Translations under genes and position numbers: made by a program | Part shown: positions 3,689-55,071 of the stretch, in pieces | How positions within the stretch are numbered: the stretch's first letter is position 1 | How the letters are laid out: each line of letters starts with the position of its first letter | The notes under the pieces: model-generated | What the model was told of the DNA's origin: nothing | Database searches by the model: none | The model's input: the letters and a program-made list of their open reading frames with translations, nothing else | DNA from: a bacterium | GTDB taxonomy: Bacteria; Patescibacteriota; Minisyncoccia; UBA6257; GWB1-50-10 | NCBI GenBank assembly: GCA_021824045.1 | Contig: JAKALR010000002.1 | Span: forward strand, 1 to 57,923 | Length of the DNA: 57,923 nt | Reading direction: 5' to 3'

Positions 3689-3791
3689 CCCGTTAGAAAT
3701 AAACTAAATAACCCAGTTGACGAGAAAGGGTTTTGCGTTTCATCGCTTCATAGTGACGGTGTAAATTGATTGCGCGTTTATTTCTAACGGG
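3689..3791 (-). mobile_element. Family-1 TIR element, subtype A (103 bp), abutting the P1 start codon
   Basis: 16 bp TIRs CCCGTTAGAAATAAAC / GTTTATTTCTAACGGG, flanked on both sides by ATTCAT (ATGAAT on the coding strand) at 3683-3688 and 3792-3797. Confidence 0.75.
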
Positions 3792-3820
3792 ATTCATGGT
3801 TTTATTATATCAAAAGAAAT

Positions 3821-4882: not shown

Positions 4883-5272
4883 TTAACCGCTGAGTATCTT
4901 CTGTACGATGCTTATTATACCACTTCCTACGAGGATTATACCATAGCCCACTGCCGTGTAAAGAATAGTTTTCTTGCCTTTTTCGAACTTCGCGGGCTCG
5001 CCGCCGGAAACCAATATCTGAATGCCACCCACGATGACCATGAAAGCGGCAATCGGCGATCCGGCCATAATGAGCCACTGCATGATGTTCTGCAAAACAC
5101 TTCCGATATCGCTGTTGGCGCTCCCCAGAGGATTGATAAGGGTGATATTGACAGCGCTCGGACTCGGCGGATTGAGATCGGCGAGAACGATACTGCCCGA
5201 GGTGAAGATGAAGATGACGGCAATGAGAAACGCGAATTTTTTTATCCCGTTAGAAACAAAAAGTTTCTTCAT
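4883..5272 (-). CDS. VirB2/TrbC-like pilin paralog P4. Start is placed at the ATG inside the upstream repeat element; the ORF stays open to 5365
   Basis: MKKLFVSNGIKKFAFLIAVIFIFTSGSIVLA reads as a signal peptide. Core is FMVIVGGIQILVSGGEPAKFEKGKKTILYTAVGYGIIL. There is no ATG directly after the element (ATA instead). Confidence 0.6.
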   Translation of the reverse strand: MKKLFVSNGIKKFAFLIAVIFIFTSGSIVLADLNPPSPSAVNITLINPLGSANSDIGSVLQNIMQWLIMAGSPIAAFMVIVGGIQILVSGGEPAKFEKGKKTILYTAVGYGIILVGSGIISIVQKILSG

Positions 5273-5350
5273 AAGCCATTGCTTACGAAGCGCGGTTGAC
5301 TCGACTTCTTTTGTAATCATTTTTTCCATAGGTTTGTGGTTTCTCACGGG
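5246..5350 (-). mobile_element. Family-1 TIR element, subtype B (105 bp), in frame with P4
   Basis: TIRs CCCGTGAGAAAC (coding-strand upstream arm) and GTTTCTAACGGG (gene-proximal arm). The internal sequence is homologous to copies 6188, 7607 and 29320. Confidence 0.75.
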
Positions 5351-5380
5351 ATTCATTGATTTCATTATACCAAAAGAATA

Positions 5381-6187
5381 TTACCAAGAACCCTCCGCTC
5401 CGCCGAATGGACCGGAATGTGCTCCGTTGGTGGACATCTGAATGCAGGAACCATTCGCCTCGCAATCGGCCTGAGTCGTATAACAAGTATAAATCGTTGA
5501 GCTGCCAAAGGTAACAGACGAGGTTTGAACTGCCCAAACCTGCTCTGGGGAAACGGCCGGCTTGCCGCATGCCGACTTCGACCCCGCATATATCGCCGCA
5601 TTGCTACAGAATGTTCCCGAAAAGTCGCTCAAGCTCCACGTGACTCCGGTATTTGAGCAGGCGTAATTGCCATTGCCGGCAACCTTCATATAGGTGCTTG
5701 AGGAGTTTTGAAGACCAGGCGCGGAATTGATCGGCTGGAGCTGCTGGTTGTGCGTGCAGGAGATTTGATCCCACGGAAACGCGGAGCTGCCGGTCAAGAA
5801 CCGGATTACCGTCGAGACGATGATCCACGAAAGGAGAGCGATCGCGACGCCCGTCACCGCTTTGATGAGGGTTTTCTGCCCCTTCTTGAACGTATTCTCG
5901 TTTCCCGTCGCGATGATCATCGTGATGCCGCCGATCACGATCATGAGAGTTCCGATGACGAGGGAGAACTTGAAGAGCATCTGGATGATGTTGTTCGTGA
6001 CGATGATGGCGTCGCAGAAATCGCAGGGGCCCACCGGGCCGCCCGTCGTGCTCTGGGCCGCGCAGCTCGTGTTGGTCCAAATGCCCGTGCCCTGGGCAAG
6101 CGCGAGTCCGGAACTCGACAAAAAGAGAATTATAAAAAATCCGAAAGCGGATGTGATTGCCAGTTTTGCTGTGAACCTTCTCTTCAT
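5381..6187 (-). CDS. VirB2/TrbC-like pilin paralog P5 with Cys-containing N-region and long Cys-rich C-terminal extension
   Basis: Signal-like N-terminus. Core is LVIGTLMIVIGGITMIIATGNENTFKKGQKTLIKAVTGVAIALL. The roughly 135 aa tail has multiple Cys. Confidence 0.65.
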   Translation of the reverse strand: MKRRFTAKLAITSAFGFFIILFLSSSGLALAQGTGIWTNTSCAAQSTTGGPVGPCDFCDAIIVTNNIIQMLFKFSLVIGTLMIVIGGITMIIATGNENTFKKGQKTLIKAVTGVAIALLSWIIVSTVIRFLTGSSAFPWDQISCTHNQQLQPINSAPGLQNSSSTYMKVAGNGNYACSNTGVTWSLSDFSGTFCSNAAIYAGSKSACGKPAVSPEQVWAVQTSSVTFGSSTIYTCYTTQADCEANGSCIQMSTNGAHSGPFGGAEGSW

Positions 6188-6293
6188 CCCGTTAGAAATA
6201 AAACACTTTCTTCATAAGCAATTGCCTATGATGCATGATTAGCTCGACTTGATAAATGGCCATCTTTTTCATAAGGTTGTGATTTCTTACGGG
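6188..6293 (-). mobile_element. Family-1 TIR element, subtype B (106 bp), fills the SBP-P5 spacer
   Basis: TIRs CCCGTAAGAAAT / ATTTCTAACGGG. The upstream ATGAAT overlaps the SBP stop (TAATGAAT). The gene-proximal TIR abuts the P5 ATG at 6187. Confidence 0.75.
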
Positions 6294-6298
6294 ATTCA

Positions 6299-7606
6299 TT
6301 AGAATCCGCTATTCATTATACTCGTCACCTGGCCTTCTGCCTGCTTCACGGCGTTTTCCGGGGTGCTTTGGCTGGTTACGTACGCATCGATCATTTGTGA
6401 GAGAACGTTATTAATTGAGCTCCGTTGCGGCCCATACCACGACCGGGCGTAGAGAGCCTGCTTCGCGAAAACCGAAAGAGACGGATCATTCAGGGAGGCG
6501 TTGATTAGGGAAAGGAGCGCCGGAGGATTGCCGGAAGCTTTCAGATATAAGTCGGCGGAAGTTTGGTTGGCGGCCATGAATTGTATGAACTGCCAATCCA
6601 GCGTTTGGTATCTCGACTGGCGGGACACCACGTAGCCGGAATAGTTCGGATACGCGACGTAGACCGTGGATGACGCCGGCTGGGGCATCGGCGCGACGCC
6701 GTAATTCAAGAACGAGTTCTTCGCCTTCAACTGGCTCAGGGCCGATTCATAATCAAAAATCATCGCGACTTTGTTTCCCGCGAACGCGTCCAAGGAGTCA
6801 GGCATATTGTAATTCCAGGTATAGAGTTTGTTTGTGGGATTTGAGAATTGCGCGTAGAACTGCAGGGCACTAAATCCCGTCGGGGAAGCGAACGTCGCCT
6901 GGTTCGTCGAGGGATTCGTCATCGCCGTGCCGGTCTGGAGCATGAGGAGCGACAGGAGATCGGGAGCGTGGTCGATGTTCACGGCGGATGTTCCGATGGC
7001 CGCCGCCGACTGGTTCACGGTGCCGGTCGAAGAAATCTCTGTCAGGGACGGGATTATGCTGTCAAAGCTTTGCCAGGTTGTCGGCGGATAGACGATACCC
7101 GCCTTAGCGAAGAGATCCTTGTTATACAAAAGAGCCATGGTATCCACGGAAAGCGGCAGCCCGTAGACATATCCTCCGGAGACGAAGTCCTGCGAAACCA
7201 CCTGCGGGAAGTATTGCTGCAGCATGAAGGGTGAAAGTTGGGCCGGGTTTGCGGGGACGATCTTGTTCAAATACGCGGGAAGTTCCGTCGAGGGAATCAT
7301 GAAAATATCCGGCGATTGCCCCGACGCCATGGCCTCGAGGAGCGCCTGGGAATAGATCGTGTAATCACCGAATGACCGGACGTTCACCTTGACGTTGGGA
7401 TAGGTCGCCTTGAAAGAAGATATGATTTTGTCGTAGAAGGATGGCTGGTCGCCGTACACCCACATCGAGAGATTTCCCGCGATGTTCGCCGGGTTCGTCG
7501 TTGAGGTCTTCGCGCCCGGGAGGATACCCGCGAGAATGAGGAGGAGAACGATAACGCCGAGGCCGATGCCTCCGAAAATCAACAGTTTTGTTTTTGAGAG
7601 ATTCAT
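6299..7606 (-). CDS. Extracellular solute-binding protein (ABC-type, family 1-like)
   Basis: 435 aa with an N-terminal TM/signal. Overall resembles sugar-type SBPs. No permease or ATPase gene is adjacent. Confidence 0.6.
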   Translation of the reverse strand: MNLSKTKLLIFGGIGLGVIVLLLILAGILPGAKTSTTNPANIAGNLSMWVYGDQPSFYDKIISSFKATYPNVKVNVRSFGDYTIYSQALLEAMASGQSPDIFMIPSTELPAYLNKIVPANPAQLSPFMLQQYFPQVVSQDFVSGGYVYGLPLSVDTMALLYNKDLFAKAGIVYPPTTWQSFDSIIPSLTEISSTGTVNQSAAAIGTSAVNIDHAPDLLSLLMLQTGTAMTNPSTNQATFASPTGFSALQFYAQFSNPTNKLYTWNYNMPDSLDAFAGNKVAMIFDYESALSQLKAKNSFLNYGVAPMPQPASSTVYVAYPNYSGYVVSRQSRYQTLDWQFIQFMAANQTSADLYLKASGNPPALLSLINASLNDPSLSVFAKQALYARSWYGPQRSSINNVLSQMIDAYVTSQSTPENAVKQAEGQVTSIMNSGF

Positions 7607-7712
7607 CCCGTTAGAAATAAAGCGCCTTTTCCATAAGAGATTGCCTATGATGCGCGACCGACTCGACTTCTTTCGTGACCATCCTTTTCATAAGTTTGCG
7701 ATTTCTCACGGG
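7607..7712 (-). mobile_element. Family-1 TIR element, subtype B (106 bp), fills the gyrA-SBP spacer
   Basis: TIRs CCCGTGAGAAAT / ATTTCTAACGGG. The element begins 2 nt after the gyrA stop and ends at the SBP ATG (7606). Confidence 0.75.
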
Positions 7713-7714
7713 AT

Positions 7715-10159
7715 TTACAGGCATACAATGCCGACGAGCTTATCTCCTTTGTCCAAATTCATAATCTTGACTCCTTGGGTCGCTCTCCCGAGGATGCGCA
7801 CGTCTTTGAGGGGTATCTTGATGGCCTGTCCTTTCGAAGAGAAGGCGAGGAGTTCCATAATGTCGTCTCCCACGACGTGGGCGCCGATCACGACGCCGGT
7901 TTTTTCGGTGATATTCGCCGTCTTGATCCCGGAACCTCCCCTCCGTTGTATTTTATACTCCTTGAGGTTGGTTTGCTTGCCGAAGCCGTTCGCGGTCACG
8001 ACCAAAAGTTTCGACGTGGCAATCGATTTCGTGGGCACGATATCGGCGCCGCTCACGGTGTCGCTCTTCTTGAGACTGATGGCTTTCACGCCGCCGGCGG
8101 TTCTCCCCATGCTCCGGATGTCCTTTTCCTTGAATCGGATTGCTTGGCCCGAAGTCGTGGTGAGAATCACCTCGTCGTTTCCTTCGGAGAGTTTTACCCA
8201 GAGAAGTGCGTCGTCGCCTCCGAGCTTCACGGCAATGATGCCGGTCCGCCGGACGTTTCCGAAATCCCCGAGAAGCGTTTTCTTGATGATCCCCTTTCGG
8301 GTGATCATCACAAGGAAGCCTTCCGTCGTGTCTTTGGGGTAAGAAATAATCGCGCTCACCTTCTCGGTCGTCGGCACCTCAAGGAAGTTATAGATTGATT
8401 TCCCCTTCGAAGTGCGCGACGCTTCCGGTATCTCGTATGCCTTGGTCTGGAAAGCCCTCCCCTTGTTGGTGAAGAAGAGAATGTTGTCGTGCGTGGAGGC
8501 GTAAATAATCTGGGAAATCTTGTCTTCTTCCTTTAATTCAGCGCCAATGAGCCCCTTCCCGCCCCGCTTCTGGGCGCGGAACGTTTCTGGCGGCATCCGC
8601 TTGATGTAGCCGTCTTCGGAAATGGCAACAATGGAATCGCCTTCGGGAATGAGATCTTCCTCGTTGAACTCCTTGAGTCCTCCGGCAACCAGTTTTGTTT
8701 TCCGTCCGCTCACGAACGTTTTTTTCAGGTATTCCAAATCAGCTTCGATGATGGCGAGAATTCGCTTCGGATCCTTGAGGATGATCTTGAATTCCGCGAT
8801 CATTGTTTTCTTTTCCTTGAGTTCGTCTTCGAGTTTGATCCGCTCCAGGGCGGCCAGGGATTGCAGTTTCATTTCCAGTATCGCGTCGGCTTGGAGCGCC
8901 GAGAGTTTGAAATTTTTCATCAGGTTCACCTTGGCGGTTTCCCGGTCCTTGGATTTTTTGATTGTCGCGATGATCTTGTCGATGACATCGAGCGCGGTGA
9001 CCAATCCTTCCAGGATGTGCGCCCGCTCCTCCGCTTTCCTGAGATCGAACTCGGTCCTCCGCTTGATGATTAATTTTCGATGGTCGAGATAGTATGCCAG
9101 GACGTCTTTCAGGGAAAGCACCTGCGGCTGGATGCCTCCGACGAGGGCCAGCATGTTGTAGTAGAAATTCTTCTGCAGCTCGGTGTATTCGAAGAGCTGG
9201 TTCAGGATTTTTTGGGGGTTCGCGTCGGTCTTGAGTTCGATGACGATTCGAAGCCCTTCCCGGTCCGATTCATCCCGCACATCCCGGATGTTTTCTATTT
9301 TCTTTTCCTGCACCAGGTCGGCGATTTTCGTGATGAGATCCGATTTATTGACCTGATACGGGATCTCCGTGATGATAATTTGAAAACTCCCGCTCTTTCG
9401 CTCTTCAATCTCTGCCTTGGCGCGCATCGTGATGGATCCTTTGCCGGTTGAATACGCTTCTTCGAGTGATTTCTTGCCGTAGACAATTCCTCCCGTCGGG
9501 AAGTCGGGTCCCTGAATGAATTGCATGAGGTCTTTCACGGTCGCGTCCGGGTGCCGGGAGAGATGGATGACTGCGTCGGCAACTTCGCCGAGATTGTGGG
9601 GCGGGATTGAAGTCGCCATGCCGACGGCGATGCCGACGGTGCCGTTCAGGAGCAAATTGGGAAGTTTCGCGGGGAGGAATTGCGGCTCCTCGCGGGTCGA
9701 GTCATAGTTGGGTATCCAATTAACCGTTTCCTTCTCGATGTCCTCGAGCATTTCTTCGGCGATCCGCGAGAGCCGCGCTTCGGTGTATCGCATGGCGGCC
9801 GGGCTGTCGCCGTCGACGGATCCCCAGTTCCCCTGGCCGTCGATCAGCGGGTAGCGGAGGGAAAAATCCTGGGCCATGCGGGCCAGGGCGTCGTAGACCG
9901 CCATGTCGCCGTGCGGATGGTATTTGCCGAGTACTTCTCCCACGACATTCGCGGATTTTTTGAATTTGGCGCTGTGGGTGAGGCCGATGTCCCACATTGC
10001 CCAGAGGATTCTCCGTTGCACCGGCTTCAATCCGTCGCGGACATCCGGCAACGCGCGGGAAACGATGACGGACATCGCGTAATCGAGATAGCTTTCGGAA
10101 AGTTCCGCGGTTATTTCCTTATCTTCTATTTTTCCTTGTTCCCTTTTTTCGTCTTCCAT
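7715..10159 (-). CDS. gyrA: DNA gyrase subunit A
   Basis: 814 aa. N-terminus has [26 protein letters not shown] and KYHPHGD, with C-terminal beta-pinwheel repeats. Confidence 0.95.
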
Positions 10160-10253
10160 GCCGAGTATTTCCTCTTTCCCTTATTATCGGCGATTGCAGC
10201 CGAAGAATCAATATCAAAACAAGAAAAATACGCTGAGCGATGACTCGGAAAGA

Positions 10254-10313
10254 CGAAAAAGTGGGTAAGACTTGGCCAAGCGGCCCGGAGCGCACACTTT
10301 TTCGGCTTGCCGG
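10254..10313. repeat. 60 nt palindromic repeat, copy 1 (second copy at 18466-18526)
   Basis: CGAAAAAGTGGGTAAGAC..GGCCAAGCGGCC..GAGCGC.CACTTTTTCGGCTTGCCG. Outer stem is CGAAAAAGTG/CACTTTTTCG. Confidence 0.7.
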
Positions 10314-16088: not shown

Positions 16089-16415
16089 ATGTTCAAATTA
16101 AAAAACAATCGGGTCGTGGTCGTGACGTTCGCGGTTATCATGGTTCTCTCGGTCATGGCTATTTATATTCCCCTCCTCTTCCCCTCCCCGAACCAGAATC
16201 TCGGGGCGCCGGCGGACACCGCGGGCGGATTCTCCATTTCGACCGGCACGGAGAGCGCCGCCGTCGCCGCAACGTCATCGACATCGACGCCGAACAAAAA
16301 AGTCACCGCGCCATCGACGTCGACTCAAAACCTCCCCTCCAGTTTGCAGGGCCTTTCGAGCGATGAGAACGCCCTGAATGATATTCAAAACAGTCTGCAG
16401 AACGGAAGTAAATAG
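16089..16415 (+). CDS. Hypothetical small membrane-anchored protein
   Basis: One TM (VVVVTFAVIMVLSVMAIYIPLLF) and a Ser/Thr/Ala-rich tail. Confidence 0.45.
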   Translation: MFKLKNNRVVVVTFAVIMVLSVMAIYIPLLFPSPNQNLGAPADTAGGFSISTGTESAAVAATSSTSTPNKKVTAPSTSTQNLPSSLQGLSSDENALNDIQNSLQNGSK

Positions 16416-16448
16416 ACACCGCGGATAGTAACGGATAAAAAGACAGCA

Positions 16449-17627
16449 ATGAAAGACAAGGAAATTGAAAAACTTATAAAGGAGGAGGGAGTGAGAGAGC
16501 GGAAAGTCGTGAATTTGATCGCTTCGGAAAATTTTGCCTCGGACGACGTCCGGGAAGCGCTCGGTTCTGTTTTCACGAATAAATACGCGGAAGGATATCC
16601 CGGCGGACGCTACTACGGCGGAACCGCGGTGGCGGACAAATTGGAAAATCTCGTGCGAAAGAGAGCTCTTGCAGTATTCAAACTATCGCCCGAAAAATGG
16701 GCGGTGAATGTGCAGCCGTATTCGGGATCGCCGGCGAATCTGGCGGTTTATCTGGCTCTCGTCTCTCCCGGCGAGAAAATCATGGGTATGAGTTTGAACA
16801 TGGGCGGACATCTGACGCACGGCCAGAAAGTCAGCATTACCGGAAAAATTTGGCACCAGATCCCCTACGGCGTTTCTCAAAAAACGGAAACTCTGGATTA
16901 TGGCGAGATCGGAGAAATCGCCGAAAAGGAAAAGCCTCGAATCATAGTAGTCGGATATACCGCCTATCCGCGCGTGATTGATTTCGGCAAGTTCAGGAAA
17001 ATAGCCGATAGCGTCGGAGCGATCCTCATGGTTGATATGTCGCACTTCGCGGGTCTCGTTGCCGGCGGTGCGTATCCGACGCCCTTTCGATACGCCGACG
17101 TCGTCATGACGACGACGCATAAAACGCTCCGCGGTCCGCGCGGCGCGATGATCTTTGCGAGGAAAATCAAAATAAATTCGAAATTGACGATTGCGGAAGC
17201 AATCGATAAGGCCGTGTTTCCGGGACTTCAAGGCGGACCGCACCTGAACGCGATCGCGGCGATCGGCGTCGCGCTCCGCGAAGCGGGACAGCCGTCGTTC
17301 AAAACATACGCGAAGCAAATCGTGAAGAACGCGAAAGTCCTCGCCGAAGAGCTGAAAAAACTCGGATGGAAAATCGTCTCCGGCGGAACCGACACCCACC
17401 TTCTCCTCGTCGATACCATGTCCCGCGGCATCGGAGGGAAGGAAGCGGCGGAAAAATTGGAGCGCGCGGGAATTATCGTGAACAAGAACGCCATTCCCTA
17501 TGATACGCGGAAACCGTCCGATCCTTCCGGCATCCGCCTCGGCACGCCGGCCGTGACGACGCGCGGCATGAAGGAAAAAGACATGAAAAAACTCGCGGCG
17601 AGAATTGATAATATCCTCAAAAGGTAA
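16449..17627 (+). CDS. glyA: Serine hydroxymethyltransferase
   Basis: NLIASENF, YPGGRYYGG, and the PLP-lysine region TTTHKTLRGPRG. Confidence 0.95.
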   Translation: MKDKEIEKLIKEEGVRERKVVNLIASENFASDDVREALGSVFTNKYAEGYPGGRYYGGTAVADKLENLVRKRALAVFKLSPEKWAVNVQPYSGSPANLAVYLALVSPGEKIMGMSLNMGGHLTHGQKVSITGKIWHQIPYGVSQKTETLDYGEIGEIAEKEKPRIIVVGYTAYPRVIDFGKFRKIADSVGAILMVDMSHFAGLVAGGAYPTPFRYADVVMTTTHKTLRGPRGAMIFARKIKINSKLTIAEAIDKAVFPGLQGGPHLNAIAAIGVALREAGQPSFKTYAKQIVKNAKVLAEELKKLGWKIVSGGTDTHLLLVDTMSRGIGGKEAAEKLERAGIIVNKNAIPYDTRKPSDPSGIRLGTPAVTTRGMKEKDMKKLAARIDNILKR

Positions 17628-17635
17628 TATTGCTT

Positions 17636-18463
17636 ATGGTGATCGATGGCAGGAAAATAGCGGCGGAGATCGTCGCGAAACTGAAACAAAAACCCGTGCC
17701 GCAGAAGTATCTGGCAGTTTTTTTGGTCGGCAGTGACCCGTCATCGGTAGGCTTCATCAAACAAAAGGAAAAGCTGGCCAAAGAACTTGGTGTCGATTTT
17801 CGCCTCTATAAATATAATGAGTCGACAACGCAGGACGAGCTCCGGAAAGAAATCCATAAGATCGGCGACGGGAAACCGTGCGGCGGCATTATTGTGCAGC
17901 TCCCGCTTCCCGGCTCGGCCGATCCGCAGTACGTTCTCAACGCCATGCCGCGGGAAAAGGATATTGACGTTTTGGGCGAGCGCGCTCTCGGCGCATTTTA
18001 CGCCGGCAGAAATATCATTTATCCTCCGTCCGTTGAGGTGGTGAAGGAGATAGTGGAAATTGAAAATTGCAAAATTGAAAATTGTACTGTTGCCGTAGTC
18101 GGCTTGGGCAAGCTTGTCGGCAAGCCCGTCCAAACGTGGCTCACGGGAAGATCGAAAGAAATCTCCCTCATCGATGAAGGGGGAAACTTTGATGTGTTAA
18201 AAAACGCCGATATCGTTGTTTGCGGTACGGGTGTTCCGGGACTCATCAAGCCCGAGATGCTCAAAGAGAACGCGCTCGTCATAGACTTCGGGTACGGTCT
18301 GAGCAGCGGAAAGCCCTCCGGCGATTTCGATGCCGACGAATTAAAAATTAAAAATGTAAAACTAAAAATTAGTTACACGCCGACGCCGGGTGGCACCGGC
18401 CCAATCTTGGTGGCGAAGATTTTCGAAAACTTCTATTCCCTAACCAAGGAGAAGACTCGGTAA
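17636..18463 (+). CDS. folD: Bifunctional methylene-THF dehydrogenase / methenyl-THF cyclohydrolase
   Basis: VIDGRKIA..., LPLP, VVGLGKLVGKP, TPTPGGTGP. Start is set at ATG 17636 rather than the TTG at 17630. Confidence 0.9.
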   Translation: MVIDGRKIAAEIVAKLKQKPVPQKYLAVFLVGSDPSSVGFIKQKEKLAKELGVDFRLYKYNESTTQDELRKEIHKIGDGKPCGGIIVQLPLPGSADPQYVLNAMPREKDIDVLGERALGAFYAGRNIIYPPSVEVVKEIVEIENCKIENCTVAVVGLGKLVGKPVQTWLTGRSKEISLIDEGGNFDVLKNADIVVCGTGVPGLIKPEMLKENALVIDFGYGLSSGKPSGDFDADELKIKNVKLKISYTPTPGGTGPILVAKIFENFYSLTKEKTR

Positions 18464-18465
18464 GG

Positions 18466-18526
18466 CGAAAAAGTGGGTAAGACCGGCCAAGCGGCCTTGG
18501 AGCGCGCACTTTTTCGGCTTGCCGAG
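18466..18526. repeat. 60 nt palindromic repeat, copy 2
   Basis: Near-identical to 10254-10313. It lies between the convergent folD and recA genes. Confidence 0.7.
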
Positions 18527-18534
18527 TTTTCTTG

Positions 18535-25636: not shown

Positions 25637-25792
25637 CTTGTCTTTTTTGCGGGGTTGTGGTAGAGTATATACATCAAGGCCGCTCATTCGAGTGGCTGTC
25701 GTTTTTAAAGGTCCTTCCAGTTTGAAAATTTGGTCATTGAAAATTGATTAAAAATTAAAAATTGGAGATTAAAAATTTTTAACGCTATGGAT

Positions 25793-25914
25793 CCCGTTAG
25801 AAATCGCGGACGCGGATCAAATAAGAAATATGAATAAAAAATCAAATAAAAAGGTCAAAATCAAAAACAATGGATGTGATGCGCTTTGCGCGTCCGCGTC
25901 CTATTTCTAACGGG
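25793..25914 (+). mobile_element. Family-1 TIR element, subtype C (122 bp), abutting the nusA start
   Basis: TIRs CCCGTTAGAAAT / ATTTCTAACGGG, extended by GGACGCGGA repeats. ATGGAT is present at 25787-25792 and 25915-25920. Confidence 0.75.
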
Positions 25915-27219
25915 ATGGATTTAAAAGAATTAGCAAGCGCGGTCGAGCAGATATCGGCCGAAAAAGGAATCGCCCCCGAGAAAGTTCTCGGAGCGATTGA
26001 ATCGGCTATCGCCGCCGCGTACAAAAAGGAGTATCGGAAGAAGTCGGAAGTCATTCGGGCCAAGTTCAATCTGAAAACCGGAGAACTGGAATTCTTCCAG
26101 GTGAAAGCCGTCGTTGATCCGTCGGAGGTTACAATCGTCGAAGAGGAGGAGGGACCGGTCGAAAAGCCCGCCGACGCTAAGGCTGTGGCGGATAAGCCCG
26201 AAAAGGCAGAGGGGGAAGAAACACTCCCGCGCTTCAACGCGGATCGGCAGATCCTCGCGGAGGACGCGAAGAAAATAAAAGCGGACGCTAAATCCGGCGA
26301 CGAGCTGGAGTTCCCACTCGAGGGGAAGAGCGACTTCGGTCGCATCGCGGCCCAAACCGCCAAGCAGGTGGTTCTGCAGTCCATTCGCGAAGCGGAGCGT
26401 TCTTCCATTAAGGATGAGTTCTCGAGCAAGGAAGGAGAAATCATGAGCGGGCAAATCCAGCGGTTTGAGCGCGGGAACGTGTACGTGAACCTCGGACGCG
26501 CCTTGGGAATTATGTATCCCAATGAAAGCATCCCGGGAGAACATTACCGGGTCGGCGATCGAATGCGGTTCTATGTCCTGGCCGTTCAGGATGACGCCCG
26601 GCGTCCGGGCATCGTTTTATCGCGTTCGCACCCGAACTTCGTCAGGAAACTTTTCGAACTTGAAGTTCCGGAAATAGCGGACGGAACCGTCGTTATTAAG
26701 GAGATTTCACGGGAAGCGGGTTCGCGCACCAAAGTCGCCGTCGCCTCCAATGAAGAGGGCATCGATCCGGTGGGAGCCGCCGTCGGCCAGCGGGGGACGC
26801 GGGTGATGGCGGTCACGAACGAACTTGGCAATGAGAAAGTTGATGTCATCGAATGGTCCGATGATCCGGCGAAATTCATCCCGAGTGCTCTCTCGCCGGC
26901 GAAGGTGAAATCAATCGAGGTGTTGCCGAGGAGGGAAGCGAGGGTTCTGGTCCCCGAGGATCAGTTGAGCTTGGCTATCGGCAAGGGCGGGCAAAACGTC
27001 CGGCTCGCCGCGAAATTGACCGGCTGGAAAATTGATGTCCGCTCTCAATCAAATCCGGAAGAAGTCCAGGAGGGCGGTATCGCGGCCAGTGAGGTAAAGC
27101 ACGGGGGAGGAGAAGAAGCGGCGAGTGAAGCGATCGAACCCGCCGCCCACGATGACGAAGACGAAGACAATCCGAAACTGGACGTTGAAGTTTTAAATAA
27201 GGCAGTCGAAGAAAAATAA
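25915..27219 (+). CDS. nusA: Transcription termination/antitermination factor NusA with acidic C-terminal tail
   Basis: [19 protein letters not shown], an S1 domain, and KH domains ([22 protein letters not shown]). Start is set after the repeat element. Confidence 0.92.
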
Positions 27220-29197: not shown

Positions 29198-29240
29198 ATT
29201 CCGGGAGAAGATTATTGTCTTCTCGTTGTGATGATAAAGC

Positions 29241-29278
29241 AGACAGGTGGTATACTATAGTATACCACCTGTCTTTTA
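29241..29278 (+). terminator. Rho-independent terminator (perfect 34 bp palindrome plus T-tract)
   Basis: AGACAGGTGGTATACTA/TAGTATACCACCTGTCT followed by TTTT. Confidence 0.8.
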
Positions 29279-29319
29279 TGCGTCGGATTCTTTAGTATAG
29301 AAGGTAATACGCTATAGAT

Positions 29320-29425
29320 CCCGTTAGAAACCGCAAACTTATGGAAAAAATAATTACGAAAGAAGTCGAACTAGCCGCGCATGATGCGCCATCGCTTGCG
29401 AAGAATGCGTTTTGTTTCTAACGGG
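29320..29425 (+). mobile_element. Family-1 TIR element, subtype B (106 bp), abutting the murD start
   Basis: TIRs CCCGTTAGAAAC / GTTTCTAACGGG. The internal sequence is homologous to copies 5246, 6188 and 7607. Confidence 0.75.
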
Positions 29426-30871
29426 ATGAATTTCAAGGACAAGAAAGTTTTAGTGATGGGGCTCGGGACCCTGGGCGGCGGGATCGCCGCGGCAAAGTGG
29501 TTTGTGCGGCAGGGCGCGCGGGTCACCGTGACCGACACGCGGCCGGAGAAGAATCTCGCGGCCTCGGTGAGGGCGCTCGGCGGAGCGGCGAAGAAAATCA
29601 CCTTCATTTTCGGAGAACATCGGGAAGAGAATTTCAAGGAAAATGATGTCATTGTCGTGAACCCGGCCGTTCCGCGGGAAAGCAGATATCTCGCGATCGC
29701 GAAAAAAAACCGGAAACTCCTGGTGAACGACGCTCGGGTTTTTTTTGATGTCGTGAAAAACCCCGTCATCGCGGTCACGGGGACCCGGGGGAAAACGACG
29801 ACGACGAACTGGATAGCCCATTTTCTAAAAGTGAAAAACGGGAATGTCGTCGCGGCCGGGAATTCTTCCGATGTCGCTCTTTTGGATCTCGCGGATAAGC
29901 TGAACGATAAAAAAGAGCCGGTAGTCGTCGAGCTTTCGTCGTGGCAATTGGAGCTTTTGCCGGGAGCACGGCGCGCGCCCGACATCGCGGTTATCACCAA
30001 CCTCCATCCGGACCATTTGAACCGGTATCACGGGATTAAAGCGTACGCCCTCGCCAAGGCGAATATTTTCCGGGGACAGAAGAGGAGCCAAAAATTGATC
30101 CTGAACGGCGACAGTCCATGGACGGAATTCTTTTTGCGATTGCGGCCGAAATCGTCGATCTTTTTCTTTTCTCTCCGGCAGTTGCCGAAAAACAGGAACG
30201 GAATTTTCCTGAAAGAGGGAGTAATTTTCTTCCGGTTCGGGGGAGTGTCCGCGCCGGTGGTCGCGAAAGAAGCCGTCTCGAGTGTCGCGGGGAAAGGGGA
30301 GCATAACGTCGCGAATTTCATGGCCGCAGCGCTTGCCGCGCATCTCGCGGGCGTTCCGTGGTCCGCGATAGCGCGAGCGGCGGGAAAACTGCCGCAGATA
30401 CGATATCGAGAGGAAATTGTTGTACAAAAAAAGAATTTCACGGTGGTAAACGACTCCACAGCCACTTCGCCCGACGCCGTCATTGCCGCCATCCGCCGCT
30501 TTAAGAGCCGAGGTGATTTGATTCTCATAACCGGCGGGACGGATAAAAATCTCGATTTTGAACAACTTGCCGAAGAAATAAAAAAGACGCTCCCGCCGGA
30601 AGACGTTTTTTTGTTGAACGGCAGCGCCACAAGAAAACTTGTAACTGAGTTGAAAAAGATGAAGTATTTTAATGAACAAAAACCTCAGCTTTTCGAAAAC
30701 CTCGAAGATATTCTAAGGGAAATTAAGTCCCTATACGCTATACCCCACACCCTAACCTCTCGTATCATTCTCTTTTCTCCCGGTGCCGCGAGTTTCGAAA
30801 AATTCAAGAATGAATTCGACCGCGGGGAAAAATTCGATGGATACGCGAAAAAGGTATTCAGACAGAAATAG
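29426..30871 (+). CDS. murD: UDP-N-acetylmuramoylalanine--D-glutamate ligase
   Basis: VMGLGTLGGGIAAAKWF and TGTRGKTTT. Start is set at MNFKDKK after the repeat element. Confidence 0.88.
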   Translation: MNFKDKKVLVMGLGTLGGGIAAAKWFVRQGARVTVTDTRPEKNLAASVRALGGAAKKITFIFGEHREENFKENDVIVVNPAVPRESRYLAIAKKNRKLLVNDARVFFDVVKNPVIAVTGTRGKTTTTNWIAHFLKVKNGNVVAAGNSSDVALLDLADKLNDKKEPVVVELSSWQLELLPGARRAPDIAVITNLHPDHLNRYHGIKAYALAKANIFRGQKRSQKLILNGDSPWTEFFLRLRPKSSIFFFSLRQLPKNRNGIFLKEGVIFFRFGGVSAPVVAKEAVSSVAGKGEHNVANFMAAALAAHLAGVPWSAIARAAGKLPQIRYREEIVVQKKNFTVVNDSTATSPDAVIAAIRRFKSRGDLILITGGTDKNLDFEQLAEEIKKTLPPEDVFLLNGSATRKLVTELKKMKYFNEQKPQLFENLEDILREIKSLYAIPHTLTSRIILFSPGAASFEKFKNEFDRGEKFDGYAKKVFRQK

Positions 30872-32234: not shown

Positions 32235-34432
32235 GCGGTTATCATGAGAAATTCATCCCCCGCGCTCTTGAGGTTTTGATGGATCGCTTCGGTCACGAAC
32301 GGCATGAAGGGATGGAGGAGGATGAGGGATTCCCCGATCGTCGCGGTGAGGATGGCCTTCGTCGTTTCTTCCGTGTCTTTGTTCGCCAGCTGTTTTTTCG
32401 ATTCTTCCAGATAAACATCGCAGAAATCGTGCCAGAAGAAATCGTAAAGATTCTGGAGCGCTTTCGCGAATTCGAATTGTTCTATGGATTTTTCTGTTTC
32501 TTTTTTAATTTTCGCCAGCTTACCGAGAATCTCTTTGTCGGCTGTCGTTTGAGGTTTAGCATTGCCCCCTTTCGCCAAGGCTGCGGAGGATGGCTCGTTT
32601 TGCAGGACAAAACGAGCCGCGTTCCAAATTTTGTTGCAGAACTTGCGTCCCGCCGCGACTGCCGCCTCATCCCAATGGATATCCTGACCGGTCGCCTGCC
32701 AGACGACGGCAAAGCGGGTTGCGTCCGCGCCGTATTGTTCGATGTATTTCAGGGGATCAACGCCCGTTCCCAGACTCTTCGACATTCGCCTGCCGTCCTT
32801 CGTGAGGATGGTTCCGTTGATGAAAACATCACTGAAGGGAACTTTCCCCATGAATTCGATGCCGGAGAATATCATGCGGGTGATCCACGGGTTGATGATA
32901 TCGCGGGCCGTGATGACCGCGTTGCCGGGATAGTACTTCTTCCGGTCGCTTGCGGAAAGTCCGGCGAACGGCCAGAGCGCGGACGAGAACCAGGTATCCA
33001 AAACATCGACCGACTGAACCATGTCGCAATTTTTACAAATTGGACACGCTGCCGGTTTTTTCACGGACACCACGAAATCTTCGGCCGATGAATTTTTAAT
33101 TTTTAATTTTAAATTTTTATTGGAAATTGGAAATTGAGAATTGGAAATTTCAGTTTGATTTTTACAGAACCAAACCGGCAACTGATGCCCCCACCACAGC
33201 TGGCGCGAGATTGTCCAATCGCGGATGTTGAGGAGCCAGTCAAAATACGTTTTCTCGAAGTTTTCGGGGCGGATTTTCACCTTCCCGCTCTTCGCGGCTT
33301 TCACGGCATTCTTGGCGAGAGTTTCCATTTTGAGAAACCACTGCGTCGAGGGGATTGGTTCAATCACGTGGCCGCAGCGGTAGCAGACAGCGACGTTATG
33401 CGCGTACGGTTCCTTGTTCTCTAAGAATCCGCCGTCCTGCAATTTCGCCGCGACCGCCGCGCGGGCCTCTTCCGTTTTCAGGCCGGCATATTCGCCGGCA
33501 TTCTCATTCATCTTTCCCCGGTCGTCGATGACTTGGATTGTTTCGAGATTGTGCCGCTGGCCGATCTCGAAATCGAGGATGTCGTGAGCCGGCGTGACCT
33601 TCACGGCGCCCGTTCCGAAGCTCGGGTCGATCTTCAAATCTTCGACGATCGGTATTTCACGGCCCGTGAGCGGAAGTTTCACCGTTTTGCCGACAAGCTT
33701 CGCATACCGCTTGTCTTTCGGATTCACCGCAACGGCCGTGTCGCCGAGCATCGTTTCGGGACGCGTCGTGGCGACGACGATTGATCCGGATCCGTCCGCG
33801 AGCGGATATTTTAAATACCAAAGCGTTCCCTGATCTTCCCGGTGTTCAAGCTCGAGTTCCGAGAGGCTGGTGCCGCACCGGGGGCACCAATTCACGGTGC
33901 GGAGACCGCGGTAAATCCAGCCCTTGTCGTAGTAATGAACGAAGGCGGCAAGAACATCCTTCGCGTACGCTTCATCCATGGTGAAGCGGAGCCGCGACCA
34001 ATCGGCCGAAACGCCGAGTTTTTTGAGCTGGTCCAGGATGATTCCGCCGTATTCCTCCTTCCATCGCCAAACATGTTCGACAAACTTCTCGCGGCCGAGT
34101 TCGAAGCGTGAGGTATCTTTTTTCCGCAATTCTTTTTCCACCTTGTACTGGGTGGCGATACCGGCATGGTCGGTTCCGGGAAGCCACAGCGTTCGATACC
34201 CCCGCATGCGATGGTAGCGGACAATGATGTCCTGGAGCGTGTTGTTGAGTGCGTGCCCCATATGGAGCGTCCCCGTCACGTTCGGGAGGGGCATATACAC
34301 GATGTAATTTTTAATTTTTAAACTTTTAATTTTTAAATTATCCGGATTGAAATAACCGGAATCGAGCCATTGCTGGTATATCTCCGGCTCAACCAGTTTC
34401 GGATCGTACGGTTTCGAAAAATCAGTTTTCAT
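32228..34432 (-). CDS. valS: Valine--tRNA ligase (compact, 734 aa)
   Basis: PNVTGTLHMGHAL (HIGH-type) and RMSKSLGT (KMSKS-type). Confidence 0.93.
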   Translation of the reverse strand: MKTDFSKPYDPKLVEPEIYQQWLDSGYFNPDNLKIKSLKIKNYIVYMPLPNVTGTLHMGHALNNTLQDIIVRYHRMRGYRTLWLPGTDHAGIATQYKVEKELRKKDTSRFELGREKFVEHVWRWKEEYGGIILDQLKKLGVSADWSRLRFTMDEAYAKDVLAAFVHYYDKGWIYRGLRTVNWCPRCGTSLSELELEHREDQGTLWYLKYPLADGSGSIVVATTRPETMLGDTAVAVNPKDKRYAKLVGKTVKLPLTGREIPIVEDLKIDPSFGTGAVKVTPAHDILDFEIGQRHNLETIQVIDDRGKMNENAGEYAGLKTEEARAAVAAKLQDGGFLENKEPYAHNVAVCYRCGHVIEPIPSTQWFLKMETLAKNAVKAAKSGKVKIRPENFEKTYFDWLLNIRDWTISRQLWWGHQLPVWFCKNQTEISNSQFPISNKNLKLKIKNSSAEDFVVSVKKPAACPICKNCDMVQSVDVLDTWFSSALWPFAGLSASDRKKYYPGNAVITARDIINPWITRMIFSGIEFMGKVPFSDVFINGTILTKDGRRMSKSLGTGVDPLKYIEQYGADATRFAVVWQATGQDIHWDEAAVAAGRKFCNKIWNAARFVLQNEPSSAALAKGGNAKPQTTADKEILGKLAKIKKETEKSIEQFEFAKALQNLYDFFWHDFCDVYLEESKKQLANKDTEETTKAILTATIGESLILLHPFMPFVTEAIHQNLKSAGDEFLMITAW

Positions 34433-39924: not shown

Positions 39925-39975
39925 AGCCGCTTATTGGCGGATTTTTATTTTTCATGTACCATTGAGTAAATGGAT

Positions 39976-40078
39976 CCCGTTAGAAATAAACACGCAATTT
40001 ATTTATATCGTTATTATGAATCGGTTCAATGCAACAGCTTTTCCAGTCGGCCGAGTTATTTAGTTTATTTCTAACGGG
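39976..40078 (+). mobile_element. Family-1 TIR element, subtype A (103 bp), abutting the glyQS start
   Basis: The 16 bp TIRs are identical to those of copy 3689-3791. ATGGAT is present at 39970-39975 and 40079-40084. Confidence 0.8.
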
Positions 40079-41416
40079 ATGGATATTGGGGAAAAAATAA
40101 CTGCTCTCGCGAAGCGCCGGGGGTTCGTATACCCGGGTTCCGAGATCTACGGCGGGCTTGCCGGCACGTGGGATTACGGGCCTTTGGGCGTCGAATTGAA
40201 GCGCAATTTGAAGAACGAGTTTTGGAAATCGATGGTGCAGGAGCGGAGCGATATCGTGGGACTCGACGCCGCGATCATCATGAGCCCGAAGGTGTGGGAA
40301 GCCTCCGGCCACTTGACGTCGTTTTCCGATCCGCTCGTCGAGTGCAAAAAATGCCATCACCGTTTCCGCGCTGATACCCTGATTTCTAAACCCGGAACCC
40401 CAAACCCTGTGGCTTGCCCCGATTGCGGCGGGGAACTCACCGCCCCCAAGCAGTTCAATTTGATGGTGGAAACCTATCTCGGCGTCATTGAGGGAGAAAA
40501 ACTGAAGACATATCTCCGGGGAGAGATTACGCAAGGCGTGCACGTCAATTTCAAAAACATCCTCTCGTCCACGCGCGTCAAAATTCCCTTCGGCGTCGCG
40601 CAAATCGGCAAAGCATTCCGGAACGAGATAACACCCGGCGGTTTCACGTTCCGATCGCGCGAGTTCGAACAAATGGAACTCCAGTACTATGTGAAGCCGG
40701 ACATGAAGGAATCCATGAAGCAGTTTGAGTATTGGAAAAAGGAAAGGATGGCTTGGTATGTCTCGCTCGGCATGAAGAAGGGGAACTTGCGGTTCAAGGA
40801 GCATGCCAAGGACGAGTTGGCGCATTATGCAAAAGCCGCTTTTGATATCGAGTACTATGCCGAAGGGGAATGGAAAGAAATGGAAGGAATCCACCACCGC
40901 GGCGACTGGGACGTGCGGCGCCACCAGGAGTTTTCGGGCGAGGATATGACGTACCTCGACGAAGAGGCCAAGGAAAAATTCCTTCCCTTCATCATTGAAA
41001 CATCCGGCGGCGTCGATCGGGCGGCGCTCTTCTTCCTCATGGACGCCTATGAAGAGGAAAAAACAAAAGATGGGGAAACGAGGACGGTGCTCCATTTGCA
41101 TCCCAAGCTTGCGCCGTACAAAGTTGCCGTGTTTCCGCTCTTGGCGAATAAACCAAAGCTCGTCGACGTCGCAAGGAAAATTTATGACGATCTGAAAAAA
41201 GATATGATGGTTGCCTGGGACGACCGGGGGAACATCGGCAAGCGGTACCGCGCGCAGGACGAAGCCGGTACCCCCTATTGCGTTACCGTCGATTTCGACA
41301 GTTTGGAAAGTCCGCCGGCCGGCGGAGATGTCACGGTCCGCGACCGCGATACCATGAAACAGGAACGGGTGAAGATTAAGGCACTCGGCGATTATTTGAA
41401 AGAAAAATTAATATAA
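40079..41416 (+). CDS. glyQS: Glycine--tRNA ligase (dimeric class II type)
   Basis: RRGFVYPGSEIYGG, FRNEITPG..FRSREFEQME, and GGVDRAALFFL. Confidence 0.93.
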   Translation: MDIGEKITALAKRRGFVYPGSEIYGGLAGTWDYGPLGVELKRNLKNEFWKSMVQERSDIVGLDAAIIMSPKVWEASGHLTSFSDPLVECKKCHHRFRADTLISKPGTPNPVACPDCGGELTAPKQFNLMVETYLGVIEGEKLKTYLRGEITQGVHVNFKNILSSTRVKIPFGVAQIGKAFRNEITPGGFTFRSREFEQMELQYYVKPDMKESMKQFEYWKKERMAWYVSLGMKKGNLRFKEHAKDELAHYAKAAFDIEYYAEGEWKEMEGIHHRGDWDVRRHQEFSGEDMTYLDEEAKEKFLPFIIETSGGVDRAALFFLMDAYEEEKTKDGETRTVLHLHPKLAPYKVAVFPLLANKPKLVDVARKIYDDLKKDMMVAWDDRGNIGKRYRAQDEAGTPYCVTVDFDSLESPPAGGDVTVRDRDTMKQERVKIKALGDYLKEKLI

Positions 41417-52724: not shown

Positions 52725-52878
52725 TGTTTTTTTGTTTTTCGTTTACAAAACGCAATGTTGGACTGTCGACTCCTCAATCGCCTTGCGTTTCTTTATCTCT
52801 ATTCATTATAGAGTTTTTTGTTGGAAAAATCTGTGGATAACTCCGAAAGACGAATTTTTAGTTTAAAATTTTTAATTT

Positions 52879-53289
52879 TTATGACTCGCCGAAGAGACGA
52901 TAATGGTGGACGAGTTCGAGATACGCGAAGGCGCACAGGAAAAACGCGAGAAGGCCGACACCGATCGCGGCCTTCGATCCGATCTTCGGCGCGAGGATCG
53001 CGACCAAAACCATGTAGGGGACCCAGGAGACGATGGTGCCGATAAGCACGAACCAGGCGTGCTGTCCGACGGCCGCGCCGCCTCTCGACTCGCCGATGAA
53101 GAAGTAGGCGACAAGCGTGAAGACGGGGATCAGCGTCGCGAATCCGGAAAGGAGACGCTCGCCGTTCTCTTCAAGCGCGACGATGAGCGTGGTGAAGATG
53201 CCGCCCGTCAGGAAATAAATCCCGTAACTTTTTATGAAATGCCACATATGGTTATTGTATTGCACGATGCTATAATGAAGCAACTTCAT
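52879..53289 (-). CDS. Hypothetical small membrane protein
   Basis: 136 aa with four hydrophobic helices. The true start may be the internal MWHF at 53247. Confidence 0.5.
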   Translation of the reverse strand: MKLLHYSIVQYNNHMWHFIKSYGIYFLTGGIFTTLIVALEENGERLLSGFATLIPVFTLVAYFFIGESRGGAAVGQHAWFVLIGTIVSWVPYMVLVAILAPKIGSKAAIGVGLLAFFLCAFAYLELVHHYRLFGES

Positions 53290-54987: not shown

Positions 54988-54999
54988 GTTTAATGCCGG

Positions 55000-55071
55000 T
55001 GCCCTCGCGAAGAATCGAACTTCGATCCGCGCGTTAGGGGTGCGCTGTTCTGTCCGTTGAACTACGAGGGC
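55000..55071 (-). tRNA. tRNA-Arg (anticodon CCT) with apparent C33
   Basis: Acceptor GCCCTCG/CGAGGGC+A, D arm GTTC..GAAC, anticodon stem GCGC(A)/(C)GCGC, loop CCCCTAA, T arm CGAAG-TTCGATT-CTTCG. Confidence 0.65.

Follow-up and report, generated by a model that had tools for sequence, protein, structure and literature searches.

Miniature mobile elements in bacterial start codons carry an open frame that probably relays ribosomes to the host gene

The MITEs of bacteria (miniature inverted-repeat transposable elements) include the Correia elements of Neisseria, the Rickettsia palindromic elements (RPEs) and Chunjie of Geobacter; in-frame reading is possible through RPEs and others, and Chunjie lies inside an operon without breaking it (PMC10969869). 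Translational coupling, for its part, is efficient at short distances, can occur with no Shine-Dalgarno (SD) sequence present, and can proceed via unfolding or reinitiation (PMC12548453). Here we describe elements that join features of both, in a stretch of 57,923 nucleotides (nt) from a Patescibacteriota bacterium (contig JAKALR010000002.1, positions 1 to 57,923, assembly GCA_021824045.1; the whole stretch is hereafter called the window). In the window, short open reading frames (mini-ORFs) that stop just ahead of larger genes are carried by tiny mobile elements that insert exactly into start codons. We consider it probable that these are non-autonomous start-codon elements whose kept frame relays ribosomes to the host gene.

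The elements have in common with MITEs a size of about 100-250 bp, inverted repeats, a short duplication, dispersed copies and tolerance near or in genes. Unlike MITEs, they have the start codon as their insertion point and rebuild it with their own terminal base, they bear in their repeat a stop 4 nt upstream of that start and keep the frame selectively open, and their candidate parent encodes a GIY-YIG nuclease and not a DDE transposase. The MITE review (PMC10969869) reports no MITE with any of these distinguishing properties, and the open-access literature yielded no description of MITEs that target or rebuild start codons with a coupling stop, nor any paper on the repeat sequence in a bacterial context. 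In operon coupling, for example trpB-trpA (PMC12548453), the stop likewise lies near or overlaps the start (ATGA), an SD sequence is lacking and the start is buried in structure; unlike there, the part of the upstream cistron would be played in our elements by a filler ORF, which is not conserved, comes from a mobile element and is not a gene. On E. coli mRNAs, 5'-uAUG mini-ORFs are reported, whose 5'-terminal AUG recruits ribosomes ahead of the main gene (PMC4965119). There, the main gene keeps an SD-led start, whereas in our elements the 5' AUG is the former start and the main start has no SD sequence.

The 12-mer repeat that bounds the elements occurs 15 times in the window at up to two mismatches, versus 5.3 ± 2.4 times in shuffles, and 14 of the 15 matches pair up as seven inward-facing pairs with a spacing of 103-122 nt. 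The window holds in total seven elements of 103-122 nt, all co-oriented with the gene 3' of them. These genes encode three pilins of the type IV secretion system (T4SS) type, a solute-binding protein, NusA, MurD and glycyl-tRNA synthetase (GlyRS). The elements and the features tied to them are as follows.

29319-29426, plus strand: element of subtype B, its core 29320-29425 flanked by terminal T and A.
29341-29421, plus strand: mini-ORF MEKIITKEVELAAHDAPSLAKNAFCF; its stop is the TAA within the 3' repeat, and the murD ATG follows 4 nt later.
39975-40079, plus strand: element of subtype A in the GlyRS start codon, TGGA duplicated (39971-39974 and 40080-40083).
39970-40074, plus strand: mini-ORF of 34 codons, MDPVRNKHAIYLYRYYESVQCNSFSSRPSYLVYF, from the original host ATG to the TAA of the repeat.
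39957-39962, plus strand: putative -10-like hexamer TACCAT, 7 nt upstream of the original GlyRS ATG.
25792-25915, plus strand: element of a third subtype with a 122-nt core (25793-25914) in the nusA start codon, TGGA duplicated.
25830-25910, plus strand: mini-ORF MNKKSNKKVKIKNNGCDALCASASYF, 26 codons, ending at the repeat TAA before nusA.
7606-7713, minus strand: element of subtype B between gyrA (7715-10159) and the solute-binding-protein gene (6299-7606).
7611-7691, minus strand: mini-ORF with the translation MKRMVTKEVESVAHHRQSLMEKALYF.
6187-6294, minus strand: element of subtype B; it occupies the start codon of the pilin-like gene 5381-6187.
6192-6299, minus strand: mini-ORF of 35 codons from the host ATG, MNPVRNHNLMKKMAIYQVELIMHHRQLLMKKVFYF; an internal ATG gives a 26-codon form (6192-6272).
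5245-5351, minus strand: element of subtype B with a 105-nt core (5246-5350), one nt shorter than the other B copies.
4883-5365, minus strand: fused ORF (containing MEKMITKEVESTALRKQWLMKKLFVSNGIKKFAFLIAV) running through the element in frame with a pilin-like gene.
3688-3792, minus strand: element of subtype A; it occupies the start codon of the pilin-like gene 3413-3688, with TGAA duplicated.
3693-3797, minus strand: mini-ORF of 34 codons from the host ATG, MNPVRNKRAINLHRHYEAMKRKTLSRQLGYLVYF.

An initial annotation, made from the letters of the window, had listed five of these mini-ORFs (29341-29421, 7611-7691, 6192-6272/6299, 3693-3797 and 39970-40074). Its peptides and coordinates match our translations exactly, and each of the five stops at the TAA within TTTCTAACGGG, with a long ORF whose ATG begins 4 nt further on. 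The five copies stand, while the count was too low, the copies at 25793-25914 (plus) and 5246-5350 (minus) having been missed. The TAA-CGGG-ATG layout is found in six of the seven window copies.

At murD, the core 29320-29425 is bounded by CCCGTTAGAAAC and GTTTCTAACGGG, with the ATG of the 481-aa MurD homologue directly 3'; the last base of the element supplies the A of this ATG (29426-29428). The left target site has decayed to TAGA (29315-29318) and the right one reads TGAA (29427-29430), the mini-ORF is in frame with a decayed host start (ATA at 29314), and the repeat stem is present in the minimum-energy fold. Just upstream of this element, directly after an H+-pyrophosphatase gene, a long near-perfect palindrome of 15 pairs with a T run (29234-29279) is a strong candidate for an intrinsic terminator. 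At nusA, a short ORF from the host ATG (25787, MDPVRNRGRGSNKKYE) overlaps the start of the mini-ORF 25830-25910, so a two-step relay is possible. Two copies, 7607-7712 and 6188-6293, are of the kind that lies at a stop/start junction: in the former the left target is now TAAA and provides the gyrA stop, the original junction of gyrA and the solute-binding-protein gene probably having been GTGA, and at the latter the stop of the preceding gene and the upstream ATGAAT share bases (TAATG). The copy 5246-5350 has ATA in place of ATG as its downstream start and reads TCT AAC GGG ATA; the ORF 4883-5365 is a natural variant, with fusion in place of coupling.

The ends of the elements are 13-bp terminal inverted repeats, YCCCGTTAGAAA...TTTCTAACGGGR, and inverted repeats of 11-13 bp were found in all seven window copies and in more than 240 copies elsewhere. 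Copies from genomes were collected by an exact-pattern scan with one genome per species, which gave at least 119 loci; among the matches listed, the taxa are mostly Patescibacteria, with Omnitrophota, Desulfobacterota, Planctomycetota, Nitrospirota and others. The anatomy was read from 118 genome copies among these matches. The base outside CCCG...CGGG is part of the element, being T..A in 55 and C..G in 59 of the 118, and a perfect 4-bp duplication borders 76 of the 118, of which 19 also fit a 6-bp one. The flanks were directly repeated at every genome-scan match examined, and the duplicated sequences include TGAA, TGGA, TGAG, TGCG and TTTA, so that the length is fixed and the sequence variable. 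Copies ending in T..A have a duplication of TGAA, TGAG, TGGA or TGCG (the window target being TGRA), and those ending in C..G mostly of TTTA/TAAA, TGAA or TTGA. As a result, the start codon downstream is a chimera of the element's terminal A or G and the duplication's TG. Because the terminal base belongs to the element, an ATG-to-GTG change is predicted in C..G-ended copies, and it was seen in five, which have ATG upstream and GTG downstream. These conversions, together with the 19 of 76 fit, led us to drop a 6-bp ATGRAT duplication in favour of 4 bp and an element-borne terminal pair.

Empty orthologous sites at the GlyRS gene indicate that the elements are mobile. In three orthologues (L123, L124 and L125; 83-87% identity, syntenic contigs), the upstream sequence is shared with the window and the GlyRS start is empty, reading ...TACAATTGAGTAC ATGGAC...; L125 reads TTTTTCATTTACAATTGAGTAC-ATGGACATT, against TTTTTCATGTACCATTGAGTAA-ATGGAT[element]ATGGATATT in the window. 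No copies were found in four syntenic loci of relatives (18-21 kb each), which points to a lineage-specific expansion. Inverted repeats, a fixed-length duplication, empty sites and a size too small for the mobilising enzyme, here with seven copies in 58 kb, are among the marks by which MITEs are recognised, and these were found here. Interiors are highly diverged, only 12 of about 2000 pairs being alignable; in 11 of these 12, both copies are oriented alike with respect to the host gene. Carriage by viruses was dropped as an explanation, since 2.9 million viral contigs gave 0 matches to short and long forms alike. A known RNA family or riboswitch was ruled out by a search of Rfam 15, in which only tRNAs passed the gathering threshold and only chance hairpin-type matches appeared at E <= 1.

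Start-codon positions were also found beyond the window. Among the matches listed in the genome scan together with the window copies, 63 of 126 copies adjoin a start codon with at least 60 codons following, and these include about 45 of the 55 T..A-ended ones. The 63 (57 from the scan and 6 from the window) form our first sample. A second sample was drawn from metagenomes with a downstream ATG as the only requirement. It comprised 122 distinct copies, of which 115 (110 clusters; only 2 identical to the first sample) adjoin a qualifying ORF, for which we required at least 60 codons, or 20 or more if the contig ended first. An ATG is kept 6 nt upstream of the element in 89 of the 115. Although TGRA/TYCA sites number about 1160 in the window, with about 100 between genes, all seven copies lie at start codons. 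Pairs of tandem elements at one start codon, with a common ATGAT/ATGAAT between the two, were also observed in four loci (L158 6132-6366, L190 1072-1292, L215 1588-1828 and L010 7674-7895); hitting the same start codon twice argues for a real target preference. Separately, on contigs of Omnitrophota, Syntrophorhabdus and Phycisphaerae (L011 4499-4603, L050 1733-1837 and L062 975-1094), long ORFs contain copies with a length divisible by three, which leave the frame intact and may be translated as in-frame insertions.

Many of the host start codons look leaderless. TANNNT hexamers, often with a TGn extension, peak at -13/-12 (16 of 46 copies, against a background of about 1 per position) and stand at -14 to -12 in 31 of 89 metagenome copies, a spacing that would place the transcription start on the A of the ATG. 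An SD-like motif precedes the kept ATG in only 4 of 46 copies. Of 125 copies that keep the start codon and have 300 nt or more of sequence upstream, 41% have a -10 box and 8% an SD-like motif; in 54%, a same-strand ORF ends within 30 nt upstream of the start codon or overlaps it. Many element-free genes in the genome of the window also have -10 boxes at leaderless-type spacing. Within the window, TATAAT at 3804-3809 lies 6 nt upstream of the host ATG of the copy 3688-3792. The TACCAT at 39957-39962 may be the promoter of a leaderless GlyRS transcript; the orthologue L125 has TACAAT at the matching position, the promoter region directly follows a terminator-like hairpin of the upstream gene (39927-39940), and no -35 match was found for this hexamer.

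We then asked how often the frame across the element is open, using shuffled element interiors as the null model and the antisense strand as a second control. In the first sample, an ORF of at least 20 codons runs from an ATG to the repeat TAA in 29 of 63 copies on the sense strand and in 0 on the antisense strand, with 4.9 ± 2.0 in shuffles. The TAA frame is open throughout in 25 sense copies versus 6.4 ± 2.3, and in 5 antisense copies versus 7.8 expected. Copies away from start codons have no such excess (13 and 5 versus about 8). The metagenome sample (n = 115) replicated the result, with 57 sense and 2 antisense ORFs against a null of 9.6 ± 2.8, and the frame of the host ATG reaches the host start in 46 of its 89 copies with a kept ATG (null 11.1 ± 3.0). 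We further divided 136 non-identical copies with the host start codon kept, from both public collections, by length (L) modulo three, with the following outcome.

L = 1 mod 3: the host-ATG frame ends at the repeat TAA; open in 44 of 69 (64%), shuffled 9.5 ± 2.6.
L = 2 mod 3: the frame ends at the TGA of aTGA and is not the nuclease frame of the long relatives described below; open in 21 of 39 (54%), shuffled 5.1 ± 2.0.
L = 0 mod 3: the frame would fuse 35-40 residues to the protein; open in 3 of 28 (11%), shuffled 3.6 ± 1.7.

The first two classes differ from the third (Fisher p = 3e-6), 13-14% of shuffled interiors being open, and the classes themselves are unequally filled (69, 39 and 28; p = 5e-5). 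In the L = 2 mod 3 class, the 21 open copies run to the ATGA overlap or slightly beyond. Under a relay model that allows nearby internal ATGs, the host ATG is reached in 28 of 46 copies versus 9.9 ± 2.7 in shuffles, and the relay-reachable fraction is 61-72% versus 21-28%. The initial annotation had proposed to ask, across many copies, whether frame and length are conserved beyond nucleotide conservation; an excess over both shuffled and antisense sequence does exist, and only when the frame ends at or on the host ATG. On its further question, the pattern of synonymous and non-synonymous changes, the outcome points to selection on the act of translation and not on the peptide. Differences between related copies fall evenly on the three codon positions (61/61/63), codons with a single change comprise 19 synonymous and 62 non-synonymous ones, about the random expectation, and the only conserved residues are repeat-encoded, MxPVRN at the start and YF at the end. 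The even codon positions and this mix of changes indicate that an open path from the old to the new start codon is selected, and not a peptide.

The minimum-energy fold pairs both repeats in 63 of 63 copies of the first sample. The helix is usually extended by flanking AU, so that the rebuilt AUG, which has no SD sequence, is base-paired (63 of 63 folds) and the stem is often longer than 13 bp; the interiors are mildly more structured than shuffles (mean z = -1.2).

When the fetched loci (245 L-numbered loci, 1.68 Mb in total) were screened for wider repeat pairs, long forms of the element appeared. Those of 276 and 279 nt, from a Parcubacterium (L061) and an Omnitrophota contig (L030), have the ends CCCGTTAGAGAT...ATCTCTAACGGG, and a nuclease gene lies between repeats in L061, L030, L246, L256, L265, L267 and L271. 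The repeats are the same as, or one-base variants of, those of the short elements, and those of L265 are identical to the AGAAA-type of the window. The sole gene of the long relatives encodes an 84-aa GIY-YIG nuclease (PF01541, E = 3.6e-16, 59.6 bits versus a cut-off of 22.6), whose closest solved structures are the UPF0213 proteins 1ZG2 and 1YWL. The gene is read from the host start codon, or from a little beyond it, to the TAA within the 3' repeat. Searching proteins with the nuclease returned 374 clusters. Among the best 120 of these 374, 93 are exactly 84 aa long and 116 end in ASYL or ASYF, encoded by the repeat as ...TCC TAT CTC/TTC TAA; a further feature, in 14 of the best 120, is a length of 92 aa with the start M-(D/N/S/G)-(P/T)-V-R-D. 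This M-x-(P/T)-V-R-D start corresponds to the host ATG, two bases, and T + CCC GTT AGA GAT in frame. In all five look-ups, a host gene on the same strand begins 4-5 nt past the stop of the nuclease; the products are VirD4-like, a hypothetical protein, RuvX, a TraG/VirB4-like ATPase and BipA. The duplication at nuclease-bearing loci is TGGA where undecayed, and some have -10 boxes 6-8 nt before the upstream ATG. Hybrid AGAAA/AGAGA pairs also exist; the inspected ones span decayed adjacent copies and are not single elements.

These long relatives are the candidate autonomous parent of the short elements. Most simply read, the window elements are non-autonomous relatives within that family and the TAA-in-repeat stop stems from the design of the parent; the short copies would then descend from the long ones, and the GIY-YIG nuclease would mobilise the elements. 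Small GIY-YIG genes without terminal repeats were also observed in Patescibacteria loci, between duplicated tRNA-gene segments at L001 4454-4645, L109 5217-5432, L230 1175-1402 and L200 2171-2392, a different niche for the same kind of gene. Others without repeats lie directly upstream of a mini-element (L203 1573-1809 and L057 5098-5274), and in L203 the nuclease ORF enters the 5' repeat of the element and stops at its TAG.

The sequence of events that we propose is as follows. In Patescibacteria copies, the element would enter the start codon (A|TGRA), making a 4-bp target duplication. The 5' side would keep the original ATG with its promoter or its coupling to an upstream gene, and the 3' side would gain a new ATG (or GTG) from the terminal A (or G) of the element and the duplicated TG. 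In the parent, the nuclease would be read from or near the host start and end at the repeat TAA, 4 nt before the rebuilt ATG. In the short copies the nuclease gene would be gone, and selection would hold a frame open from the host ATG or an internal ATG to the TAA or the ATGA overlap. Ribosomes would initiate at the old start codon, in many cases the first codon of an mRNA that has no leader, cross the element while translating, unwind the repeat stem that hides the new AUG, terminate beside it and reinitiate there. A TAA or ATGA stop beside or overlapping a same-strand start is the structural definition of translational coupling, and the proposed coupling has strong comparative statistics in its favour. 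A dependence of downstream on upstream translation may be read indirectly from the frame-specific excess of open frames, the lack of an SD sequence and the pairing of the AUG. The paired AUG in the stem and the short distance from stop to start fit the unfolding and reinitiation models both. Termination-reinitiation or melting of the stem had been proposed in the initial annotation, and the frame statistics favour that proposal; it had missed the context of a mobile insertion.

Several observations weigh against this account. The relay model still leaves 28-39% of the copies unexplained, and the host-ATG frame meets a stop within the element in about 45% of them (24/46 and 43/89), which comes near the pattern of frequent in-ORF stops that the initial annotation had named as contrary evidence. 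At the murD copy, ATA now stands in place of the host ATG, and the internal ATG lacks an evident ribosome-binding site. Initiation by 70S ribosomes might be impeded by a stem of at least 13 bp that starts 5-6 nt from the 5' end of a leaderless transcript. A scan for two-hexamer sigma-70 promoters found none upstream of the copies tested, and we rejected such promoters; it is thus the -10 boxes and their spacing that carry the leaderless reading. With regard to descent, the window contains no nuclease gene, and hmmsearch of short-element interiors against the nuclease gave no sense-strand match at E <= 1. Homology of the mini-ORFs or of mid-sized elements to the nuclease was accordingly rejected, the examined pairs of 136-283 nt being mostly tandem insertions or decayed copies and not partial nuclease genes, and the RIGFG...SASYF likeness between mini-ORF and nuclease is not claimed as homology.

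The competing explanation that fares best, itself unlikely, is that the ORF is a functionless remnant of the nuclease gene, and that the downstream gene is translated independently, by direct initiation at the rebuilt AUG or from some other transcript. In the long relatives, the nuclease ORF does end at the same TAA, and in about half of the copies the frame is no longer intact although the genes after them look essential. The interiors, however, have no detectable similarity to the nuclease gene or, mostly, to one another, so neutral decay should have lowered the open frames to the shuffled 13-14%. Instead, 54% are open in the ATGA class, which is not the nuclease frame, and 11% where fusion would result, and the rebuilt AUG from which independent translation would have to start has no SD sequence and is paired in the stem.

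That stem, predicted in 63 of 63 copies and often longer than 13 bp, could alternatively be a substrate for RNA processing (for example by RNase III), or the element could hold a promoter, either of which would yield an mRNA that is leaderless at the rebuilt AUG and would make the mini-ORF irrelevant. The hosts do appear to use leaderless genes often. We nevertheless consider this still less probable than a vestige, since the frame-specific excess of open frames would go unexplained. As for a new transcript, the sequence before the rebuilt ATG, read directly, is fixed by the repeat (TATTTCTAACGGG) and makes a poor -10 element, and no gene-facing promoter was found in the elements, a single 9-of-12 match inside the copy 29320 being at chance level.

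A regulatory leader peptide, or attenuator, is very improbable. The layout resembles a leader peptide followed by structured RNA, and the copy 5246-5350 has an internal terminator-like hairpin with a T run; such a site is present in that one of the seven window copies and in none of the other six, and a terminator was rejected as a feature of the family. The peptides are unrelated between subfamilies and have no conserved regulatory codons, the downstream genes are functionally unrelated (pilins, solute-binding protein, NusA, MurD, GlyRS, RuvX and BipA), and no Rfam leader family matches. That the element encodes a functional micro-protein is hardly credible, for although sense-strand ORFs of 26-40 codons are frequent, their differences are equal over codon positions (61/61/63), their changes (19 vs 62) are about random and their conserved residues come from the repeats. 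We also rejected a tyrosine-recombinase-like 11-6-11 circle junction, considered early and without evidence for it, and programmed ribosome bypassing between the duplicated codons, there being no stop after the take-off codon and no conserved nascent peptide.

Beyond the relay of ribosomes, the long relatives raise the question of what moves the elements. Phage GIY-YIG homing genes, such as seg and mob of T4-like phages, are small, lie between host genes and are expressed from host signals; they have no terminal inverted repeats or target duplication, and each has one cognate site. The long relatives have in common with them a small GIY-YIG gene wedged between host genes. They differ in that the same ends and a 4-bp duplication occur at many unrelated genes, and in that the 84-aa protein is a bare catalytic domain, without a second domain and closest to UPF0213. 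Against the group I intron endonuclease family TIGR01453, the nuclease scores 19.6 versus a cut-off of 56. A GIY-YIG homing endonuclease gene was rejected on these grounds, namely many unrelated hosts, the presence of repeats and duplication, and the lack of a second domain. Another lead came from piggyBac, which has the repeat CCCTAGAAAGATA and duplicates TTAA. The elements resemble piggyBac/IS1380 in a 4-bp duplication and in 13-bp repeats beginning CCC...TAGAAA. Unlike in those elements, the GIY-YIG nuclease is the only gene found between the repeats here, and no DDE transposase was found in the 1.68 Mb of loci. An autonomous DDE element with these repeats was rejected for the 245 loci, whole genomes not having been searched.

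We know of no DNA transposon that uses GIY-YIG chemistry, and we found no description in the open-access literature of GIY-YIG genes bounded by inverted repeats and target duplications. We tentatively suggest, at somewhat less than even chance, that the 276-279-nt relatives are a new class of autonomous prokaryotic transposon with the 84-aa GIY-YIG nuclease as its sole gene. Such a transposon would make its home in the start codons of leaderless or coupled genes, borrow the host promoter and start codon for its nuclease and hand the ribosomes back, at the repeat stop, to a start codon remade with its last base, its insertion would be actively targeted to +1 to +5 of start sites and not merely filtered by selection, and the mini-ORF elements of the window would be its non-autonomous offspring. 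The repeat-bounded 84-aa gene would then hint at an enzyme class possibly new to DNA transposition. That these ends occur in Patescibacteria, Omnitrophota, Desulfobacterota, Planctomycetota and Nitrospirota would suggest wide horizontal spread, and GIY-YIG genes are among the predicted transfers from Patescibacteria to other bacteria (PMC12455944), which fits the cross-phylum spread of these ends.

If the relay account is true, the elements are transposable elements whose design does no harm where a gene is most sensitive. Hundreds of independent insertions would amount to a natural experiment on SD-independent reinitiation and leaderless translation, neither of which, to our knowledge, has been studied in the host phylum, a major and uncultivated one. 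The elements would also account for puzzling gaps of about 100 nt, and for false N-terminal extensions, in gene calls of Patescibacteria, and could serve as compact parts for synthetic coupling.

The window has further features of its own. A tRNA with the amber-reading anticodon CUA lies at 54998-55071 (minus), beside tRNA-Ser(CGA). TAG is the stop in 17 of 54 long ORFs, and being still a frequent stop it argues against a genome-wide reassignment. The ORF 16089-16415 (plus) ends in TAG, after which the frame stays open for 403 codons more, in frame with the ORF 16449-17627; 16089-17627 (plus) may be a single gene in which the CUA tRNA allows read-through of the TAG. Another family of small repeats is represented by 10239-10312 and 18451-18524 (74 nt, 81% identical), with an internal inverted repeat at 18450-18475 / 18507-18532. 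AT-rich phased tracts of the ATTAAAAATTAAAAAT type occur between genes on both strands, at 18053-18084, 18340-18371, 25722-25777, 33091-33151, 34305-34348 and 52850-52881.

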